From assembly GCA_965200965.1 (NCBI GenBank), contig OZ241744.1, positions 3,072,001 to 3,136,000 on the forward strand: DNA of 64,000 nt, given 5' to 3'. This stretch comes from an uncultured Candidatus Binatia bacterium. Lineage in GTDB: Bacteria; Desulfobacterota; Binatia; Bin18. The notes beneath the pieces were generated by a model that saw only the letters and a list, made by a program, of their open reading frames with translations, did not search any database and was not told the DNA's origin. Positions 28,257-51,120 of the stretch are shown here, in pieces; positions within the stretch are counted from its first letter, which is position 1; each line of letters starts with the position of its first letter. The position numbers and the translations under genes were made by a program.

Positions 28257-29174
28257 ATGTCACAGGGCGAAGTAGAGATTCACCTGGGAGACAACCTAGA
28301 GATTCTCAAAACATTTCCGGGTGAGTCTTTCGATCTGATCTATATTGACCCGCCGTTCAACACGGGGAAGCGACAGGGAAGAACAACATTGAAAACGGTC
28401 CGGGACCCGCACGGCGATCGTACCGGCTATCAGGGCCAGCGGTATCGCACGATTCAGCTGGGGACGGTATCGTACACTGACTCTTTTGGGCAGTATGAGG
28501 AGTTTCTGGAGCCGAGATTGCGAGAAGCCTATCGGGTACTCAAAAAGACGGGGGTGTTCTTCTTTCATATTGATTACCGGGAAGTGCATTATTGCAAGGT
28601 GCTGCTGGATCAAATTTTCGGCAGAGCATCCTTTATCAACGAAATCATATGGGCCTATGACTACGGCGCACGCTCAAAGCGGAGATGGTCCCCGAAGCAT
28701 GACAACATTCTCTGGTACGCCAAGACACCAAGCGCATACACCTACCGCTATGAAGCGATTGATCGCGTCCCATACATGGCCCCCGGCCTGGTCGGGAAGG
28801 AGAAAGCGGAGCGGGGAAAAACGCCAACCGATACCTGGTGGAACACCATTGTTCCGACGAACGGGAAGGAAAAAACGGGATATCCGACCCAAAAGCCTCT
28901 GACTATTCTGAATCGAATTATCCGAACGCATTCTCATCCGGGCGATCGGGTCCTGGATTTCTTTGCGGGGAGCGGAACGACAGGAGAAGCGGCGTTCACG
29001 AGCGGGCGGGATGTTGTCCTGGTCGATAACAATCCAGAGGCGATTCGGGTTATGGAACACCGCCTGGCGCGTGCGAAGCCGACTCTCTATGAAGAGGGAA
29101 AACCGATTTCAGAGCCTCGAGAGCGGCGAGACTTGTTTGACGTGCCGGAAAGGGCTCCAGAATGTCACGCATAA
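28257..29174 (+). CDS. N6A/N4C DNA methyltransferase, beta-type motif order
   Basis: GDNL, IYIDPPFNTG, YPTQKP, LDFFAGSGTT. Confidence 0.93.
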   Translation: MSQGEVEIHLGDNLEILKTFPGESFDLIYIDPPFNTGKRQGRTTLKTVRDPHGDRTGYQGQRYRTIQLGTVSYTDSFGQYEEFLEPRLREAYRVLKKTGVFFFHIDYREVHYCKVLLDQIFGRASFINEIIWAYDYGARSKRRWSPKHDNILWYAKTPSAYTYRYEAIDRVPYMAPGLVGKEKAERGKTPTDTWWNTIVPTNGKEKTGYPTQKPLTILNRIIRTHSHPGDRVLDFFAGSGTTGEAAFTSGRDVVLVDNNPEAIRVMEHRLARAKPTLYEEGKPISEPRERRDLFDVPERAPECHA

Positions 29175-29722
29175 CAGACGCAGAAGTCCGGATTCTCGCA
29201 CAAGAGGCGGATACATTGAGTCAAGAATACGCAGCGAAGAGGAGGGATTGGGAAGGGAGTCCTTTCGGATGGATACGGGAGGGGGTCTCTTCAAGACAAA
29301 AAGGAACGATCGGGGAAAAGATCGTGGAAAGGTATCTGGCTGGTAAAGGATTCGATGTCGCTCGAAGTCCAAACTCCGAAGCAGACCGTTTGATAAATGG
29401 GATCAGGGCAGAGATAAAAATGAGTACCTTATGGGAAAATGGAACTTATACGTTCCAACAGTTGCGGGATCAGAATTATCAGTTTGCGGTATGTCTCGGC
29501 ATTAGTCCGTTTGACGCGCACTGTTGGGTTCTACCGAAGCAAACAATCATGCGACAGAGGGAGCTTGGGGGGATCACGCCACAACATGGCGGGGCCGGGG
29601 GAACCGATACGGCATGGTTGAAGGTAGACCCCAAAAATGTAGCTGCCTGGCTGAATGATTGCGGGGGTACGCTAAGTCAGGCTGTGCAACGCATTGCCGA
29701 AATAGTGAAAACATCAACCTGA
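29162..29722 (+). CDS. Putative type II restriction endonuclease (PD-(D/E)xK)
   Basis: KGTIGE...AD...AEIK...FQQLR; overlaps the MTase stop; AT-richer DNA. Confidence 0.72.
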   Translation: MSRITDAEVRILAQEADTLSQEYAAKRRDWEGSPFGWIREGVSSRQKGTIGEKIVERYLAGKGFDVARSPNSEADRLINGIRAEIKMSTLWENGTYTFQQLRDQNYQFAVCLGISPFDAHCWVLPKQTIMRQRELGGITPQHGGAGGTDTAWLKVDPKNVAAWLNDCGGTLSQAVQRIAEIVKTST

Positions 29723-35416: not shown

Positions 35417-35546
35417 CTAACAGGCTGTACCGGAGTCTTCTGCATCTTTTAGAAGAGCGCCAGAGTCGCAACCCTTACCGATTTGCCCCGTCGTTACCGG
35501 TAGGGGCAATAATCGTCTCGGACGGAGCATCAAGCGATACGCTCAT
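35417..35546 (-). pseudogene. Remnant of the gene coupled downstream of the Z1 gene
   Basis: ATG overlaps the Z1 stop (TGATG); reads MSVSLDAPSETIIAPTGNDGANR* then breaks down. Confidence 0.45.
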
Positions 35547-37756
35547 CAGCCGCCCTGAGTCGGCTGATCCTGGTTGATCCAGTCACGAGCCAGCCGTGCC
35601 GGGACCCATACAGCAATCACAGGTACAGTCGCTTTGATCACCTTGCTCCCTTGCGTGAGATCAAGCATATGGATTTGAATGGTTACAGTGTCCCGGTCGT
35701 AGATCTCACGATCACCTGGATACACCTTACCGCGCTCCTCACGCGGCTGAACGGGCGCTTCACCCTGAAAGAGATTAGTAATCTCCCCCTTCCTCTTGAT
35801 ACCCCGTTGCCGCTTATTACCACGACTCATCTGGTAGATAGTACAAAGCTCATTGGGGTCGTTTTCCAGCGCGTGTCTGAGTTGAAGAAGCAGGCCAGTA
35901 TTACGCTGTGAATCAGATGTGCCGGTGATTCGCACGCGGACGAGAAGTTGATCAAGCACATCATATAAGCGAACCCCAGCGCAAACCAGATGGCGTTGGA
36001 TGTCGGTGCGATTAGGATGCCCATCGTTATCGACAAACTCCTTCCCGTTCAAGAATGCTTCAACAGCCTCCCGGTTGGCCGAGATGACAGGATCGGGCTC
36101 CATCACAACGCGCGGCGTCACCCAATCGTCCGAGAATCGACCACGCATGTAGTCGAACTCAAGCACATTGTGGCGACAGGGCTGTAATCTGCTATCAAGA
36201 ATGAAGGTTCGCTTCCATTCATTGAGGGGCCGGTTCTCTTGTTGAATAGCCTGCAACTGCCCCCGGATGTCCTCTTCATGCTCTACATAGCTCTGAAGGG
36301 CATTGAGTACGCTTTGCTCAAGATAAAGACGACAATAGCCAAGATACGATCTCTTGTAACCGAAGAACCGGGCGCGCTGCTGCATGGCATCGGCATTACC
36401 CACGCCGATGCCCCTAGGCATATAGGTGACCGTGAGGCCCTCAACGGTGAAGCCACGATCCATGGCCTGTCCACCGACAAGTATCCAGCCATAGGTACTC
36501 TGCCAGTCCACAGACGGAGTAGATCCTGCTCGAGCATTGACCTCTAGGACGCGTGTGTGGAGAAATGCAAGACGCAAACGGGGTACGAGTTTGTCGAAGG
36601 CAGGCAGGTCTGCTCCCGCCGTCTCAGCCAATTCGTCATAGGCTTCACGAAATTCCTCAATCAGTTCCAGTTTGTCGGGATCGGCATCCGGCAGACCGGA
36701 GATGCGCTTCCATTCCTCGAAAATGTTCCGCACCCAGTTGTGGAACTCCTGATGCTGAGCGGTACGGTGAGACGGATGAACCAGCATTGAGCGGTTGCCG
36801 GTATTGCCACTGGTGAGAAGACCGGCTGTAACGCCCACCATGAAAACGCGGAGCGCTCCCATTAGAGATTCAGGGGGCTCGCTCAAAGGATCGGACTGGC
36901 TGGGCACATCCTGTGAAGGAATGACGCGGACATAGCTGGGATTGTCGCCGAAGAAGTCCCTCCCACCTACATAAGTGTCACCGGGCTCAAGAACCTGAAC
37001 GAAGTTAGGGGACAGGGAATCTATGATGCTCACGAGCAACGGTGCTTGGGGCGTCGCAGTATATTGCAGATATGTATGGCTAGGTATTGCCCGCTTGAGT
37101 TCCATCAGACAGCGGTAGGTTGTACTTTTCTGGCCTTGCTCCACCTTTGTGTTCAAGCTGGCCTGATCCGCTTCATCATCAATAATGAGAACGGGGACGT
37201 TCTGCATGTCAAGGTTGCCAATGAGTTGAGCAAGCTTCTGCAAGTACCGGTGATTCTTGAGGACTGTGATGAGAACGGTCTTCCTATATTCCTCGGGTGT
37301 TCCGGGATCCCTCCAGCCCTCCAGCACATTACGAATGTCTTGGAGCGTCGCATGATTGTAAGATGGGTTCTCAAACCGAAGCCAACGCCGTGCACGCGGA
37401 CCGTCAAGCCTCAGATCGCGGCTCAGTCGGTCCGTCGATTGTTTAAGTAAGATCTTAGAGCTGCCAGCGACGATAATAACGATCTGGAAGGTGTTATCGC
37501 GGGCAAGAGCGACGACGGTCTCGAATGACATCGTCTTACCACTTTGAACATATCCGACCACAATCCCCGTTTCCTGACCGCTGGCTGTCGTTGGAGGAAT
37601 ACACTTGGCAAGAATGGAGACGGCGTCATCGAGTACACTTTCGCGGCTCTCTTGCGGGACCACATTCTCCAGAAAGTCCGTAGTTTCCGCCCCCACCGAA
37701 GGCGTCCAACGGTCGCCGCCAATGGGCTTGGCTATGCTATGGGTTTCATCAGCCAT
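35546..37756 (-). CDS. Z1-domain protein with SF2 helicase-like N-terminus
   Basis: GYVQSGKT, IIDDEADQASLN, YTATPQA, MLVHPS, GG.AMDRGFTVEGLTVTY, QRARFFGY. Confidence 0.9.
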   Translation of the reverse strand: MADETHSIAKPIGGDRWTPSVGAETTDFLENVVPQESRESVLDDAVSILAKCIPPTTASGQETGIVVGYVQSGKTMSFETVVALARDNTFQIVIIVAGSSKILLKQSTDRLSRDLRLDGPRARRWLRFENPSYNHATLQDIRNVLEGWRDPGTPEEYRKTVLITVLKNHRYLQKLAQLIGNLDMQNVPVLIIDDEADQASLNTKVEQGQKSTTYRCLMELKRAIPSHTYLQYTATPQAPLLVSIIDSLSPNFVQVLEPGDTYVGGRDFFGDNPSYVRVIPSQDVPSQSDPLSEPPESLMGALRVFMVGVTAGLLTSGNTGNRSMLVHPSHRTAQHQEFHNWVRNIFEEWKRISGLPDADPDKLELIEEFREAYDELAETAGADLPAFDKLVPRLRLAFLHTRVLEVNARAGSTPSVDWQSTYGWILVGGQAMDRGFTVEGLTVTYMPRGIGVGNADAMQQRARFFGYKRSYLGYCRLYLEQSVLNALQSYVEHEEDIRGQLQAIQQENRPLNEWKRTFILDSRLQPCRHNVLEFDYMRGRFSDDWVTPRVVMEPDPVISANREAVEAFLNGKEFVDNDGHPNRTDIQRHLVCAGVRLYDVLDQLLVRVRITGTSDSQRNTGLLLQLRHALENDPNELCTIYQMSRGNKRQRGIKRKGEITNLFQGEAPVQPREERGKVYPGDREIYDRDTVTIQIHMLDLTQGSKVIKATVPVIAVWVPARLARDWINQDQPTQGG

Positions 37757-37772
37757 GAGTGGATATCCTATT

Positions 37773-39302
37773 CTACGGTTCTGAAAGCGCGGCCCTTAGA
37801 ATCTCATTCACGTTGCGCCGAACAGTGCCGGCCTTGCGCACCCCGGAGTCACGTGCAAGCACCTCGGCCAGCGCGAACGCTGCCGCCACCCGAAGCAATC
37901 CTTCGATATTCTCAGTACCGGTTTGCGCAAAGCGCACCATGAACGGATGGGCCATGGAAACGCGGATGCTGAGCCGACGAGGATCGCTGAGAGTCTCAGC
38001 AATATCGCTAGGGGTAATCCATTGGTCTTCAGCCGGGTCATTGGTGAGTTCGACCTTAATTGACCAACCTCTGTCACGAAAACGAATGTCAAACTGCCGT
38101 CCTGCGAGAAGAGATTTCTGCGGTGCTTCCTCCGTCGGTGTATCCACCGGCTCAGCTTCCGCAACGGCTGGCAGAACTTCAGGCAAGTGAGTCTCCATCG
38201 CCTGCGTTGTGTTAGTGACAGCTTGTTGGGCAACTGTCTTGAGTTGCGCGCGGGCTCCGCGGACTCGGTAGCCCTCAGCCTGCTTCAACAGGGGCACATC
38301 TCCGCTATCCAAGTGCTCCCGCAACAACTCCAGAAACGGCTGCTCATTCTCGTCCCACCGGAATCCATCCTTCGTGTGGCTCACCTCAAAGCCGGCAAGG
38401 TGAAGTTCCCCAAAGAGCCGCTGGTAACGGTAGCTGTTGGAACTACCAAAAATATGGGATGGGCGGTATCCCTCATCGCCACTGCCCTGAATCACACGGC
38501 CCCGCCGAAAAAGTGAGAATCCGGCCTTGGTCGTGTTTGCCGTCTTAAGCAGTGCTGCGAAGCCACGGACAGAGAGACCTTCACCGAAATCAAACGCAAT
38601 GTCTTTGCGCCAGACACGATCGATCCCCTCCTTATCCTTGAAGTGCGGGGCTTTCAGAACTTTCGGCTCTCTGTAGGTTAATACCTCGCCCTTGAAGCGC
38701 AATTCGAGACGGTCGTCTCGGATGAAGGCTCGGTAGATATCTGTGAGATGCTCCTTGAGTTTCGCAGTCGTGCGCCCGACAGGGACATGAAAGATGTCCT
38801 CAAGGATGATTTCCGTATAGTGATTTTCAGCCTTCTCCTGAACTTCGCGGATTGTGAGCTCCTTGATATCGTCATTCACGATGTTCTCAATATCAAAATG
38901 AACCTTACGGGCGACCGACTCACCAAGTGCGGAGGTGCGCACGATCCACCGCGGAGCGAACCAGCACGCCGCACTCTTCATGCCCATGCCGAACTCGGCA
39001 AGACCGGAGCGGTCCGGAGGGATGGCGGCCGGCCGAAAGGCCCGTCCATACTCCTGCTCACAGATACCGGCAGCGTTGTCTCGGATAGAGAGGCGGGCTG
39101 GCGAGGCCGTGTCGATGTCAATATCGACACGGAGCTTGATATGCTCGCCGTGAGCCTGTTCCAGCGCCTCCCTATGCTTACCGAAGCTCTCTACGGCGTT
39201 GTCGACAAACTCGCCCAGCGCATACCACGGCTTGTAGTTAAGATGTCGTAACACAGCCAAGACGCTTACGCCGGGCCTGATATCAACTGTTCTCGGTGCC
39301 AA
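37773..39302 (-). CDS. MORC-like GHKL ATPase
   Basis: [31 protein letters not shown]. Confidence 0.88.
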
Positions 39303-40702
39303 TGCTCTTCATTCCCCTTTTCACGGCGCGTTGGTTGTCTCGGCGATAGGCGGAACGTTGTCAGTTGACCAGTGGTCTCATGCTGCCGCGGTATCCCGCC
39401 GTGATGAACTCCCGCCGTGGTCCCCGTGCTATGATCCCTCAAGAGGTGTTGAGCAACCTCCTGCACCACACGCACATTGACCGCGTTCCCAAGGGCCTTG
39501 AATGCAGCGGTCTGCGTTGGCGGAAGTTGGAGGTCTCCCATGCTCTGAAGGCGGCTGCATTCGCGGGTCGTCATGTACCGCCGTTGCGCGGCAATGACGG
39601 GGACCTGACTCGTCGTCATGGCCACAAGGGAGGGGGCCACCGTTGGGCGCTTGACGCGAATGCCGGATGCACGAAACTGAAGAAGAGCGTTCCAGATATT
39701 CCGTGGCTCCCCTTTGCAGTTCCATTCCAATTTCTGAAAGCTCGGCGCGAACTCAAGGATTGAGGGAAGCCACGGGTCGATCCAGGCTTGGTGACGCTGA
39801 TACAGGGTCCGGTTCTTGTGGATGAAGTCCCGCTTCCATTTCGGAAAGCATGGGGCCGGGTTGCGCGCATACGCGGGCAACGCCGCAAGCACCTCCTGCT
39901 GAGAGAGGCCGTGGAGTGGACGGCCAAAGCTCCCCTTGCACGCCCCCATTCTTGCAAGTCCCATCCCGGTTGGTGACGTGTCCCTATACGGATATGTGGC
40001 CCCGAACTCCATGCTCCAGATAGGAAAGGACGGCAACTCCTCATCTGCGGGATATTGATCAAGGAAGTGCTGCCACGCCTGGAGGTAATGCACGAACTGC
40101 TCCGACAGTGGGCGCGCATTCTCGGGATGCTGGTCCAATATGGAGTCCAGAGACAACGTGGACGCGTCGGAGACCACGGGCCAGGAGAACCCGCCCAGTC
40201 CACCGCGACGGCCAACGATAAACACCCGTTCACGAATATGTGGTACATCGAAATGGTGCGGTGACAGGAGCGTATCTCGGACGCTGTAGCCGGCAAGGCG
40301 CAGCCTGTGCTTAATCGTCCGCCACGTTTTTCCCTGGTGGTGTCGCACGAGGTGAGGCACATTCTCGATGAGGAAATACCGCGGCGTGTGGGTCCTGAGA
40401 ATGCGGATGATGTAGCTCATGAGGTCGCCCCATTGGGAGCAGTCAAACCCCTGCTGATTGCCCGCCTTGGAGAAGGGCTGGCAGGGGAAGCCAGCACAGA
40501 GGATGTCGTGATCAGGCAGTGACGGGATATCAAGGGCACGGATATTGCCAAAAGGACGGAGGCCGAAGTTTTTTTCATAGAGGGCGGCAAGACCCTCATC
40601 AACCTCGCACGCAAAGACACAACGGTGTCCGAGGTTTTTGAGCGCAAGATGAAAGCCCCCAAGACCTGCAAACAAATCAATGAAGCGGAGCGGCTGTGCC
40701 AT
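39266..40702 (-). CDS. dcm: DNA (cytosine-5) methyltransferase
   Basis: [38 protein letters not shown]; alternative start at 40750. Confidence 0.94.
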
Positions 40703-40803
40703 GTTGTTCTGCGCTACTCCATGGCCAGAGCAGGCGGCACCTCTCTCCATGTTCTCCTTACATCCTATCCACTTGTCAACGGCTGGAGGGCCACCATCTC
40801 TGA

Positions 40804-41244
40804 TCATGACGCAATGCGGCCCCAGGCATTCACCTTGGTGGGGGTAATGCGCACCATCGCGTTGCGGCCAAAGCGCAGGTCCATCGCTCGGTACTGCGGG
40901 TAGCGCTTACGGAGCAAGGCCAGGGCCCGGTCGTACTCGGCCCGGTCCTCAACCAGGGCGGTCGTGCCCCGTACCATCACATACGCCAGCCGGGTCCAGT
41001 CGTCGGCGTAATCGTCAACGACCAGGGCCGCCTGGGGATTCTCCATCATGTTCCGAATGCGCTTGAGCGGTTTGCCCGTGTGGCGCTTGGGCTTGTGGTC
41101 AACCACAAAGTAGAAGTGCTGGCCGTCACAGGCATAGCAAAACGGGATGACGTGCGGCTCGCCGTCCCGACCGGCCGTTGCCAAGCGAGCCACCTGGTGG
41201 GCGTCAAGAAAGCTTCGCACCGGCTCTGGAATCAGATCGGGCAT
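40804..41244 (-). CDS. PPOX-class (probably F420-dependent) oxidoreductase
   Basis: VARLAT, PHVIP, VDHKPK, LKRIRN..ENP, VDDY.DDW..L. Confidence 0.85.
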
Positions 41245-47870: not shown

Positions 47871-48197
47871 ATGATGAGTATTGAGGAATTTGGCAAGGTT
47901 GAGTTGCGGGTGGCGACCGTCACTGCGGCCGAGCCCCACCCCAACGCCGACCGTTTATTGGTGCTCAAGGTTGACCTGGGCGACGAACAGCGCCAACTCG
48001 TGGCCGGCATTCGGAACCACTATACGCCCGAGGCCCTGGTCGGCAGACAGATCGTGGTGGTGGCCAATCTTCAGCCGGCAAAGCTGCGCGGGGTTGAGAG
48101 TCAGGGGATGCTGCTGGCCGCCACCGATGCCGGTACCGGCGGCGTGATTCTCTTAAGCCCAGTCCAGCAGGTCGCCCCCGGCTCCAAAGTGTCCTAA
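47871..48197 (+). CDS. tRNA-binding OB-fold protein (MetG C-terminal/Trbp111/CsaA-like)
   Basis: HPNADRLL, RQLVAGI, NLQPAKLRGVESQGMLLAA; AAGGAG RBS. Confidence 0.9.
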   Translation: MMSIEEFGKVELRVATVTAAEPHPNADRLLVLKVDLGDEQRQLVAGIRNHYTPEALVGRQIVVVANLQPAKLRGVESQGMLLAATDAGTGGVILLSPVQQVAPGSKVS

Positions 48198-48244: not shown

Positions 48245-48621
48245 TCAGAAAGCAATCCGTGTGATGCCTTCGACAAGGTCGAAATGGGCGTCGTTACTCA
48301 ACACTGGGAGAGCGTGCTGGCGGGCGAGGGCGGCAACCCAGATGTCGTTGAGAGGGATGGGCTTAACTGTCCGTTTCAATTCCAAACGGATCTCGGCATA
48401 GACTCCGGCCGTCACTGGGGTAATGGCGGCGATTTCGACCAGCGGGAGATAGCGGCGGAGCCAGTCCTCCTGGCGGGGACGGTAGCGAGATTGGCGATAC
48501 CGAAATAATACTCACCAAGAACGATGGCGGGAACAAGGAGCCGGTCGGCAGATCGTAATGGGGATTGAACCTCCGGGCGACCTTCCGCCCACGCCGACAA
48601 AGCGTTCGTGTCTGAAATCAT
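48245..48621 (-). pseudogene. vapC: PIN-domain VapC toxin, frameshifted near 48497
   Basis: DTNALS, VLGE; after the shift RQSRYR...PIPLNDIWVAALA..H...SNDAHFD.VEG. Confidence 0.82.
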
Positions 48622-48745
48622 GCGCTGTCGCCAAGTTCGAGGCGCTCGAACTCATCCTCGATCATCTCAGCGACGGTTTTCACTCGACAGGTCGGACAGC
48701 TTGCCGAACCCTGCCATCCAGGGAGCTTCCTGTTTGTCTATGAGT
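48618..48745 (-). pseudogene. C-terminal remnant of a VapB-like antitoxin
   Basis: APWMAGFGKLSDLSSENRR, then shifted EMIEDEFERLELGDSA*; ATGA overlap with vapC. Confidence 0.55.
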
Positions 48746-49303
48746 GGGTCGGTATCAGCCTTGCCGACTATGCTCTTCAGGGCACAGATCTGGTTAGCGT
48801 CCTGAACTTCTTCGCTCTTTTTGTCGTACCTATCAAGAAAGGACTTTCTCGATTCGGCGTTCTCTTCTAAGGTACGCCTGTATTTCCCGAATTCCAGACA
48901 AAGAGCCTCACAGAGCTGCCTCACATTGAGTATCAGGTTGGGAACTTCGTCAATCTTTCGTCGTGAAAGATGCTTGCCTTCTTTCCGCGCAATAGCGATC
49001 CACAAGGTTTGTCGAGCGAATCTCCGGGGCCTTGTAACGGTGAACGAGACCGTTCCTGAGAACGTTGTAGAGTGGCTTTGCTGCAGCCTTGCAGGGGCCC
49101 GCCCGGAAAAGGTCTCTAAAGACCTTAGAGCCTTCGCTGCTCCCGTAACGAAATTTTGCCAGGGTTTCGCAGGCACAGGTAATGAGGAGGGTAATGGCGA
49201 AATTTCCTCCTGCTTCAAGTTCGAGAATTCGCTCCAAGTCACGACGGATGAAGCCGAATACTCGGTCGAACTTATCGTTGATATCTTCGAAACTGACGAC
49301 CAT
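48745..49303 (-). pseudogene. HEPN-motif protein, frameshifted near 49015
   Basis: GGAG RBS, MVVSFED; CACETLA; LRNGLVH (RxxxxH); continues in ORF 48667-49242. Confidence 0.6.
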
Positions 49304-49351
49304 AGGAGTTTCTCCGAATTCCACCAAATAAGGGCGGGCGTGGGCCCTCAC

Positions 49352-49771
49352 TCAGATTTCAATCACCCGGTTGTTCGCTCGGGCTTGCCTGAAGGTCTCA
49401 AAGTCTTTGAGCGGGCTGTCTTTCACGATCCCCAGGATGCCGCTGAGGGCCGTATCCATCGCGTGTTCATTTTTTTCCTGTACCGCAGTATGCAGAACGT
49501 CAAAGAATCCGTTTAGCGCAGCTTTACGTTCCGCAAACCGTTGTGCGAAATACTCCAGGATAATTTCTCTTTCAGACTCGATAAGTCTGACGGCAATGTC
49601 GCGCTTCGCTGCGATGCGTGCCCGCTCTGTTTGTTGTTCCTCTGCGGTTTTTCGGTACGATATATATTCTCTCAAGACTTCGAGCGGATCCAGGTTCTGA
49701 ACAATCACCTTGCCGCCGCCTATATGCTTTGCCAGAGAAGAAGCAGCTTTTCCAATTGGAGATTGTGGCAT
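49352..49771 (-). CDS. Small all-helical hypothetical protein
   Basis: ATG 2 nt after the upstream stop; EEQQTERARIAA...SPLKDF. Confidence 0.75.
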   Translation of the reverse strand: MPQSPIGKAASSLAKHIGGGKVIVQNLDPLEVLREYISYRKTAEEQQTERARIAAKRDIAVRLIESEREIILEYFAQRFAERKAALNGFFDVLHTAVQEKNEHAMDTALSGILGIVKDSPLKDFETFRQARANNRVIEI

Positions 49772-49773
49772 AC

Positions 49774-50649
49774 TCAGATAATCCTTCCGTCGTTATCAAG
49801 GATCGCGACATCCAAAAGCTGTCCCAAGGACACCGCGACCTTTGCAACCCGGTAAGCGTCATGTTCATTGTCGGGCGAAGATGAAGAGAGCAGGTGTTCC
49901 AGTTCATACGTCAGCTTGATGGTGCTCTCTTTCAATTCGGTGACGCGGGCGAGAACAGCGTCCAAAGCAGCGACCAGTCTCCGCTTTTTTGCCTCGTCAA
50001 TATCCAACTCCGCGATGGATTTTTCTACTTGGTTCTCTACATCACCCGCCCGCTTAAGCCTCCAAAGACCAATAACGAGAATGGCCGGTACGACAACAAG
50101 ACCGCCGAGAACTGTCGTTCCAGCGGCAACGCCGCCTCCGCCGGCGGCTAGGGTCCCTCCTCCCAACCACGCTAGCGTCGCACTTTTTGCGGCAGCGCCC
50201 GATAAAGCTGAAATGGCCGTACCAGTCCCGGCCTTTGCGAGCATTCCCACCAATCCGTAAGCCGCCGTCGCAGTGGCAACCCCTGACCTAAGAGCGGCAG
50301 CGCCTCCCGCAAGAATTTCATGCGCGGAAACAGAGGCGTTGCTGAACTGGATAAGCTGTTCCGGGGTGATGTTGAATTTTTCAAAAGGCTCTCTGTTCTT
50401 GAGTTTGGCCTGTTCGAGAAACTTCACCGCTTTGCCAAGCGTCACCATCGATTCAAGGCGAGTCTTGCCAAGGTCCTCAAACCTTGAAGCTACATAGGCG
50501 TGTTTTTCTTCATACTTCCGAATCTCTCCCTCGTACCGTCTGCGGCGATCCGCGTATTTTTGCTTAGCTCTCTTAATCCGCTTATTGCCGCGAATAAGAA
50601 CGAGGAGAGGGGAAGCAGCAGCGATTAGTCCCAATAGAGGTATTGGCAT
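49774..50649 (-). CDS. Coiled-coil membrane protein with a long Gly/Ala hydrophobic segment
   Basis: AAGGAG RBS; GTGTAISALSGAAAKSATLAWLGGGTLAAGGGGVAAG plus TM helix. Confidence 0.8.
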   Translation of the reverse strand: MPIPLLGLIAAASPLLVLIRGNKRIKRAKQKYADRRRRYEGEIRKYEEKHAYVASRFEDLGKTRLESMVTLGKAVKFLEQAKLKNREPFEKFNITPEQLIQFSNASVSAHEILAGGAAALRSGVATATAAYGLVGMLAKAGTGTAISALSGAAAKSATLAWLGGGTLAAGGGGVAAGTTVLGGLVVVPAILVIGLWRLKRAGDVENQVEKSIAELDIDEAKKRRLVAALDAVLARVTELKESTIKLTYELEHLLSSSSPDNEHDAYRVAKVAVSLGQLLDVAILDNDGRII

Positions 50650-50719: not shown

Positions 50720-51103
50720 CTACTCCTTGCCGGCGAACCGGTCGATACTGATGACCGCCCGTTCGTGCGTGCCTGCACCGATTTTGGTGCCGTCCTCGTT
50801 GTAGGCTTCGACGCTGAATGTGAGCCGCCGGCCTGTGATCTCGGTCAGGCTGACCTTGCCGGTGACTTGCTGGCCGATCGGGGTCGGAGCCAGGTGTCTG
50901 ACATCAATGTGAAAGCCGACCGTCTGCTCGCCGGCGTCCATATGGGGCGTCAGAAACTCGACACAGACGCCCTCCATGAGCTGGATCATGGCCGGGGTGG
51001 AATACATCCGAGGGGCGTCCGGCCCGAGGTGGACAATGCCCATGTCCGGGGTGGTGGTAATCGTTCGTTCTGAGGCCATGCCGGGTTTGAGCGAGTCTTT
51101 CAT
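50720..51103 (-). CDS. FlK-like hotdog thioesterase
   Basis: YSTPAMIQLME, TVG...VRHLAPTP.G, GTHERA. Confidence 0.88.
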   Translation of the reverse strand: MKDSLKPGMASERTITTTPDMGIVHLGPDAPRMYSTPAMIQLMEGVCVEFLTPHMDAGEQTVGFHIDVRHLAPTPIGQQVTGKVSLTEITGRRLTFSVEAYNEDGTKIGAGTHERAVISIDRFAGKE

Positions 51104-51120
51104 GCGCATTCCTCTTGTTG

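Follow-up and report, generated by a model that had tools for sequence, protein, structure and literature searches.

A run of three closely spaced genes in the DNA of an uncultured Candidatus Binatia bacterium (GenBank GCA_965200965.1, contig OZ241744.1, positions 3,072,001 to 3,136,000; these 64,000 nucleotides are referred to as the window) raises the question of whether it is a defence operon and, if so, which of its genes make up the working unit. All three genes are on the minus strand: gene 1 (49774..50649; 291 amino acids), gene 2 (49352..49771; 139 amino acids) and gene 3 (48618..49303), a pseudogene with a HEPN motif. The gaps are 2 bp between genes 1 and 2 and 48 bp between genes 2 and 3, and the G+C content of positions 48745-50649 is 52.1% compared with 61.5% genome-wide, so that the compact, low-G+C layout described in the initial annotation is confirmed. 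The answer reached here is that genes 1 and 2 are a conserved pair, and likely a stripped-down relative of known membrane-attacking anti-phage systems. What is new appears, from sequence comparison, to be the short partner: gene 1 with its 139-residue gene 2 would represent a short-partner version of the known PDC-M09A-type family of candidate effectors. We tentatively favor, at somewhat less than even confidence, a minimal two-gene anti-phage membrane module in which gene 2 holds gene 1 inactive until infection.

The pairing of genes 1 and 2 was followed in metagenomes, plasmids and genomes. A metagenome search anchored on gene 2 returned 17 loci, two of which failed the profile and two of which start at a contig edge. 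In all of the 13 loci left, gene 1 is directly upstream of gene 2. The plasmid matches of gene 2 homologs also sit behind a gene 1 homolog (4/4). Co-occurrence had been suggested as a check on the proposed operon, and on this evidence the two genes are indeed conserved neighbors. When genome loci were anchored on gene 1 (22 loci), 13 were found to have a short partner and seven a long partner of 480-580 amino acids, the other two being cut by contig ends. One locus (L019:5371-8357) has the reversed order, with gene 2 first, and has a second, diverged copy of gene 1 downstream.

Gene 1 starts with an N-terminal hydrophobic leader, followed by a long helix, a Gly/Ala hydrophobic stretch and C-terminal helices. 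The hydrophobic stretch (residues 104-195; 50065..50340, minus strand) is 92 amino acids long, consists of 47% Gly+Ala with only four charged residues, and takes in every invariant column (13 in all) of the wide family alignment. The long predicted helices lie on either side of it (residues 23-80 and 201-256), which agrees with the earlier description of coiled coils around a stretch of about 90 residues. The earlier statement that the locus matches no named system does not hold for gene 1, since it matches the PADLOC family PDC-M09A over most of its length (expectation value, E, 6e-25, also 5e-20). PDC-M09A is matched as well by every one of the 89 aligned gene 1 homologs, drawn from 635 found. 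Gene 1 is best described as a distant member of this family and a putative membrane-inserting effector. Its nearest relatives are in Candidatus Binatia genomes, and a quick tree places it in a 10-member clade (support 97) in which every protein has a short partner and which is separate from the M09 clade. Scans of Pfam, NCBIfam and PHROGs gave nothing significant for genes 1, 2 or 3, PDB sequence searches with alignments of the three gave nothing below E 0.1, and ESM Atlas searches found unnamed clusters only. Two kinds of rearranged gene 1 were seen elsewhere. At L001:5712-7702, gene 1 has a partial copy on either side: upstream is a 95-residue N-terminal piece, and downstream an open reading frame (ORF) of 117 residues in which a gene-2-like start runs into residues 185-296 of gene 1, the portion predicted to bind gene 2 but lacking the hydrophobic stretch. 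At L100 and L142, a gene-1-like hydrophobic stretch is fused to a PDC-M72B-like domain in proteins of 520-620 amino acids.

Gene 2 was described earlier as a helical protein of 139 amino acids, and its model is all-helical, with three helices and a predicted local distance difference test score (pLDDT) of 80.8. The protein is predicted to be soluble. It has no hydrophobic segment (the best 19-residue Kyte-Doolittle mean is 0.68), and is therefore unlikely to be a second membrane-inserting subunit. Its profile finds 978 representatives at 50% clustering, and 125 of the best 150 are 105-170 amino acids long. Gene 2 matches no named family, its fold searches return generic helical hairpins only, and it has no match in the phage collection. 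The longer relatives (up to 261 amino acids) have N-terminal extensions with neither a Pfam hit nor a gene 1 match, and no fusion of genes 1 and 2 was found.

The short partner was also compared with the long ones. When the gene 2 profile was run against the 4,214 ORFs of the fetched loci, it hit, apart from gene 2, only the C-terminal ends of five distinct long proteins adjoining gene 1 relatives (L013, E 7e-10; L095, 2e-7; the BnzB-like protein of L021, 2e-5; L016, 7e-4; L014, 9e-4). Gene 2 corresponds to the C-terminal ~110 residues of these partners. Among decoys, the best E was 4.2 for the 20,509 ORFs of the bacterium's own genome, and 68 or worse for reversed partners. In the reciprocal direction, a profile of 11 tails recovered 75/151 gene 2 proteins at E<=1e-3 and no decoys. 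At the level of sequence it is firm that gene 2 is a free-standing homolog of the tail in one group of long partners. The 544-residue PDC-M40B-like partners of one gene 1 subfamily have no gene 2 tail; in this Pseudomonadaceae subfamily (L130-L137), a gene 1 relative of ~366 amino acids is paired with a PDC-M40B-like protein of 544-559 amino acids, a further combination that has no name.

Do the two proteins interact? The ESMFold2 complex of genes 1 and 2 scores 0.76, the best of three controls scoring 0.00. The mark used for this score is reached by 116/157 solved and 2/215 mismatched pairs, counts that are only approximate with custom alignments. The runs agree in at least 86% of contacts, with a partner pLDDT of at least 78. 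The predicted interface is on gene 1 residues 198-291 (49777..50058, minus strand), away from the hydrophobic stretch. On the gene 2 side, 12 of the 16 most conserved residues are at the interface, where mean conservation is 0.53 compared with 0.37 elsewhere (p 2e-4); R50, F79, R82 and P120 are conserved residues of this interface. The models predict a 1:1 complex in which gene 2 sits on the C-terminal helices of gene 1. For such a complex we infer a defence role, pore formation and restraint by gene 2, which could work as follows. Gene 2 would clamp the C-terminal helices and keep gene 1 soluble and inactive. The trigger would most likely be displacement or loss of the gene 2 protein during infection. 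Gene 1, once freed, would insert its glycine-rich hydrophobic stretch, oligomerize and make the membrane leak. The membrane in question might be the host inner membrane or the infection vesicle of jumbo phages, as reported for the Dionysus system, which is taken up below.

Restraint is preferred over other roles of gene 2 for two reasons. One is that gene 2, having no hydrophobic segment, is unlikely to insert in a membrane itself. The other is the order in which the genes are lost: an intact gene 1 with a broken gene 2 was seen at no locus examined, whereas the reverse and joint decay were both seen. Gene 1 is split and gene 2 intact in L041, both genes are broken in genome G037, and remnants of gene 2 are found without gene 1 in G036 and G004. 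An alternative is that gene 2 is an activator or adaptor, recruiting gene 1 to a phage structure or co-assembling with it; the leak would then require both proteins, as it does with two-part alpha pore-forming toxins. Gene 2 is 79-93% conserved among close relatives, which exceeds what antitoxins usually show, and the tight helical complex predicted above is in keeping with an activator. Dionysus could be a precedent, in that all three of its proteins are reported to be needed and two of them, DinA and DinC, to share foci at the infection vesicles (van den Berg et al., bioRxiv 10.1101/2025.09.30.679545). However, gene 2 carries no extra sensing domain in addition to lacking a hydrophobic segment, its relatives keep to the narrow size range given above, and the loss-order cases lean to restraint. 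We consider an activator unlikely, though it is the strongest of the alternatives.

Several results weigh against the restraint model, and some of them also against pore formation or the comparison with long partners. The loss-order cases are few, and L050-L052 have gene 1 relatives without a detected partner, contrary to strict toxin-antitoxin logic. In Dionysus, DinA aids defence rather than blocking it, according to the same report (bioRxiv 10.1101/2025.09.30.679545). At the predicted interface, gene 1 shows no higher conservation than in the rest of its C-terminal part (mean 0.54 vs 0.63). The gene 1 model has a mean pLDDT of 59.5, falling below 50 in the hydrophobic stretch. With this model Foldseek ranks ClyA first, at a nonsignificant E of 0.16 and a template-modelling (TM) score of 0.27. 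In a wide fold search (VIA), ClyA is at rank 30 (Z 5.8, root-mean-square deviation 7.4, 161 aligned), under unrelated helical bundles. The alpha pore-forming fold proposed initially is therefore not demonstrated by the ClyA searches, and the models are best called compatible with it. The tail comparison also becomes thin away from the group that the gene 2 profile hits. A profile made only of the seven tails unhit by that profile finds 0/151 gene 2 proteins at 1e-3, and 9/151 plus one genome decoy at 0.1. Where the comparison is non-circular, hhalign is weak: gene 2 aligns with the seven unhit tails at a probability of 29% (E 6e-4), with the three Dionysus-order tails alone at 7%, with BnzB at 27% and with true PDC-M09B at 0.7%. 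The sequence link of gene 2 to BnzB and Dionysus-order proteins is accordingly weak, and homology to the PDC-M09B tail is not demonstrated. DinA His326 is absent from the seven long-partner sequences checked.

Is the pair found where defence genes are? Outside this lineage there are 23 distinct pair loci, with three from Psychrobacter taken as one, and 13 of the 23 have defence-type genes close by; the neighbors were chosen by eye, L003, L019, L036, L042 and L043 were unscanned, and the count has no background, which also tells against leaning on it. The neighbors include HEC-01 (L004), an AbiL-like ATPase (L005), type IIG restriction-modification (L007), AbiL with BREX (L010-L012), TerB (L020, L097), PDC-S31 (L040), HNH (L041), dynamin (L047), SIR2 with toxin-antitoxin genes (L103), type I restriction-modification (L104), a phosphorothioation-associated methyltransferase (L105), and WYL with Uma2 (L144). 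We regard this defence context as suggestive. Two other kinds of gene recur beside cassettes of the gene 1 family. A small cysteine-cluster gene (CxxCxxCC, YkgJ) is found with short, BnzB-like and Dionysus-order partners (L010:5707-5982, L021:8110-8379, L105:6336-6650, L127:6123-6452 and L129:205-552). Genes for WYL-domain regulators often adjoin the cassettes (L015, L021, L052, L054, L127-L132 and L137), those in L127-L137 being presumed to be WYL genes by resemblance.

The same neighborhoods bear on two readings that do not involve dedicated phage defence. The pair could be a membrane-stress or membrane-remodelling module linked to dynamin or TerB. A 714-residue dynamin-family gene (Pfam E 1e-22) is 21 bp upstream of the pair in L047 (L047:1905-5372), and TerB precedes the pair in L020 and L097. 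In addition, 7/89 gene 1 homologs match LeoBC weakly, and one long partner matches LeoB over its tail region. However, TerB and Leo dynamins are themselves reported from defence systems that have been validated (Millman et al., bioRxiv 10.1101/2022.05.11.491447), and in L104 the pair is directly behind a type I restriction operon. The distribution of the pair is also patchy, gene 1 being present in 4/60 relatives and gene 2 in none of 300 other genomes of the phylum, and its low G+C content and repeated decay also count against a membrane-stress or remodelling role. Such a module is a rather improbable explanation. Alternatively, gene 1 could be a pore-forming toxin released, or delivered by contact, against other cells, with gene 2 as its immunity protein or chaperone. 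The layout of a toxin followed by a small partner would fit, ClyA, AhlC and SmhB are among the weak Foldseek rows for gene 1, and the sequencing runs containing this DNA include sponge metagenomes. Yet no secretion genes were noted at the loci inspected, the neighbors are restriction, BREX, Abi and toxin-antitoxin genes, and the named relatives of the family are intracellular defence candidates. We hold an intercellular toxin to be improbable. Taken together, the readings that involve defence, including the activator form and a three-gene form considered next, are distinctly probable.

The remaining question about the working unit is whether gene 3 belongs to it. The initial annotation had noted an RNGLVH motif, an upstream Glu and a frameshift. 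Both motif elements are present, as E46-x3-K50 and R83-NGLV-H88 (the latter at 49040..49057, minus strand), and there are two lesions rather than one. HEPN RNases are described as having Rx4-6H with a polar residue after R, and an upstream acidic residue, typically in Ex3[KR] (Anantharaman et al. 2013, PMC3710099). Gene 3 resembles this superfamily in its motifs, namely the Rx4H, the polar residue after R and the upstream Ex3K; it differs in having no match in Pfam, NCBIfam, PADLOC or PDB and in being a pseudogene here. The motif LR[ND]G[LF][VA]H is in 21/22 rows of the gene 3 alignment, the remaining row being the out-of-frame fragment of the window, and the upstream acidic position is Glu in 11 rows, Asp in nine and Gln in one. 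Compared with an intact relative (close relatives are 185-236 amino acids long), 5 nt are missing near 49010-49017 and another 5 nt at 48669. The full frame would reach 48618, overlapping (ATGA) a fourth gene, which is PIN/VapC-like (48245..48621, minus strand). This gene is frameshifted as well, with 1 nt missing near 48496; its intact counterpart in L070 matches Pfam PIN (E 4e-12). Assembly error was considered as the cause of the gene 3 frameshift and rejected, since the first deletion is bridged unchanged in contigs of four out of four runs from three studies, among which run X1 may be the source of this DNA. The second deletion is missing from one run (X8), so that decay is ongoing. Gene 3 is a real pseudogene in this genome. 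In some of its relatives (P0189-P0198, P0209) there is an acidic tail of ~40 residues whose stop overlaps the start of the PIN gene (window 48618-48760). By resemblance, this tail may be the end of a vapB-type antitoxin joined to the HEPN-motif protein.

In a three-gene system the pair would be the sensor of infection and the HEPN-motif RNase the effector. Such a system would account for two separate sites in related genomes (L001, L002) at which all three genes are intact and in the same order, and for G037, where they keep this order but are partly broken. However, gene 3 follows the pair in only 2/13 of the pair loci found with gene 1, both belonging to this lineage, and in 0/12 gene-2-anchored metagenome loci with at least 600 bp downstream. 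It is present in nine of 60 relatives, three of which (G019, G023 and G028; 83-93% complete) have no gene 1 match, and it has no match in plasmids. Decay has also struck the two parts separately, genes 1 and 2 being intact and gene 3 dead here, and the reverse being the case in G037. A three-gene system is very improbable. Because gene 3 is a pseudogene, is found with the pair in close relatives only and can also stand by itself, it is better read as separate, lineage-specific cargo than as a core part. Of the two-component membrane pair with an optional RNase that was first proposed, what survives is the conserved pair, the predicted binding, the frequent defence neighbors and the dispensability of gene 3; the HEPN protein as effector of the pair does not.

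The three genes also stand out from their surroundings. G+C content as low as theirs occurs in 1.6% of 1,905 genome windows of 1.9 kb each, and the G+C content at third codon positions is 0.52-0.57 in the stretch compared with 0.75-0.80 in three flanking genes. The upstream flank (50720..51109, minus strand), presumably thioesterase-like by sequence resemblance, is present in 8/8 genomes of the genus. The downstream flank is a convergent gene (47874..48197, plus strand) that we assume, again by resemblance, to be tRNA-binding-domain-like. In G002, G003 and G006 the flanks are ~180-490 bp apart, which represents an empty site. They are 1.6 kb apart in G004, where a gene 2 remnant lies between them, and 3.5 kb apart in G005, which has other cargo there along with a broken gene 3. 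The distance is 3.2 kb in L001, with all three genes intact, and 2.5 kb in the genome of the window; G001 is interrupted by the end of a contig. The site between the flanks is a variable slot that holds a patchy low-G+C insertion. A ribosome-binding-site-like AAAGGAG is 5 nt upstream of the gene 1 ATG. A search of the locus for sigma-70-like promoters found none, with 1.2 expected, and there is no RNA run among the runs listed as containing this DNA, which is uninformative on expression. Two other low-G+C blocks were noticed in the window. One, of three genes on the minus strand (35546-40807) and 8 kb from the pair, encodes a C5 DNA methylase (Pfam E 3e-63) and proteins of 509 and 736 amino acids, which we take to resemble a MORC/Hsp90-type ATPase and a Z1-domain helicase/endonuclease, respectively; it is likely a restriction-type defence locus. 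The other, on the plus strand (28257-29722), has genes of 305 and 186 amino acids, presumably a DNA methyltransferase and an endonuclease, and is likely a type II restriction-modification pair.

If the pair protects against phage, it would be a widespread defence system that is not being called, and its two short proteins would be the smallest entry point to the question of how membrane effectors of the Dionysus type are turned on. The stand-alone form, with around a thousand protein clusters distributed over many phyla, is missed by PADLOC 2.0. The shared tail would tie together the separately listed PDC-M09, Dionysus-order and BnzB-linked loci, and suggests a testable role for the C-terminus of the long partners. 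A bolder proposal is that the pair is the irreducible core of a membrane-attacking defence superfamily, a glycine-zipper pore former with a clamp of ~110 residues, to which Dionysus, PDC-M09 and Bunzi-like loci have added sensors (TerB, long N-terminal domains, dynamins). On its own, the pair would then work against phage with no sensor, the clamp itself serving as the trigger. This proposal is doubtful. Literature searches on PDC-M09, Dionysus, Bunzi and glycine-zipper or alpha-pore defence gave one passing mention of PDC-M09 and no description of the short-partner pair, with a recent name being possible and DefenseFinder and post-PADLOC 2.0 systems lying outside the scan.

Comparison with named systems places the pair near several of them and inside none. 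PDC systems are presented as predicted, untested candidates embedded in BREX, DISARM and restriction-modification loci, and PDC-M09 is unnamed in the main text of that report (Payne et al., bioRxiv 10.1101/2024.01.29.577857). The pair shares with PDC-M09 the match of gene 1 to PDC-M09A and a two-gene layout with the effector-like gene first. However, true M09A proteins score ~380 bits compared with 86 for gene 1 of the window, and form their own clade, and true loci (L098, L099, L058) carry an M09B of ~480 amino acids where the partner here has 139. Of the three M09B models, PDLC04408 was the one run against the whole genome, and it matched nothing there at E<=10; the neighbors of gene 1 have no PADLOC hit. 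Assignment to PDC-M09 was rejected, with M09B not found in the genome and gene 1 outside the M09 clade. To ClyA/Hbl/Nhe-type toxins gene 1 is similar in size and in its long helices around the Gly/Ala stretch; the differences are a nonsignificant fold match, no PDB sequence match and a partner without a hydrophobic segment. The three genes of the window have no match to BnzA (TerB) or BnzB of Bunzi (Millman et al., bioRxiv 10.1101/2022.05.11.491447), and the link to that system is the short tail of one protein. Nevertheless, BnzB-like genes adjoin gene 1 relatives in L021 and L054, and it is the last 60 residues of the L021 protein that match the gene 2 profile.

A further parallel is with Dionysus, in which DinA is a long membrane protein, DinB a TerB protein and DinC an alpha pore-former whose model resembles ClyA/Hbl/Nhe; the system is reported to block the infection vesicles of jumbo phages without killing the host (van den Berg et al., bioRxiv 10.1101/2025.09.30.679545). 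Gene 1 relatives are present in 21/401 Pseudomonadaceae genomes, and in three of these (L127-L129) the order is WYL, long protein, TerB-like and gene 1 relative, the TerB-like assignment being weak (hhalign E 2e-3). The protein clusters of these loci include Pseudomonas aeruginosa proteins, one on 441 contigs. Judged by architecture, L127-L129 may be Dionysus, although DinA His326 is absent from those of their long partners that could be read, which counts against equating the two. The window differs in that its three genes give no TerB hit and their 2- and 48-bp gaps leave no room for one, and in that there is no long membrane DinA, the partner being only tail-sized and without a hydrophobic segment. 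On the other hand, a full-length alignment of gene 1 with the third and last protein of the Dionysus-order loci gives 31% identity (E 4e-30). Moreover, the same report (bioRxiv 10.1101/2025.09.30.679545) predicts a 1:1 complex of DinC with the DinA C-terminus, and the predicted geometry of gene 2 on the C-terminus of gene 1 matches that prediction.

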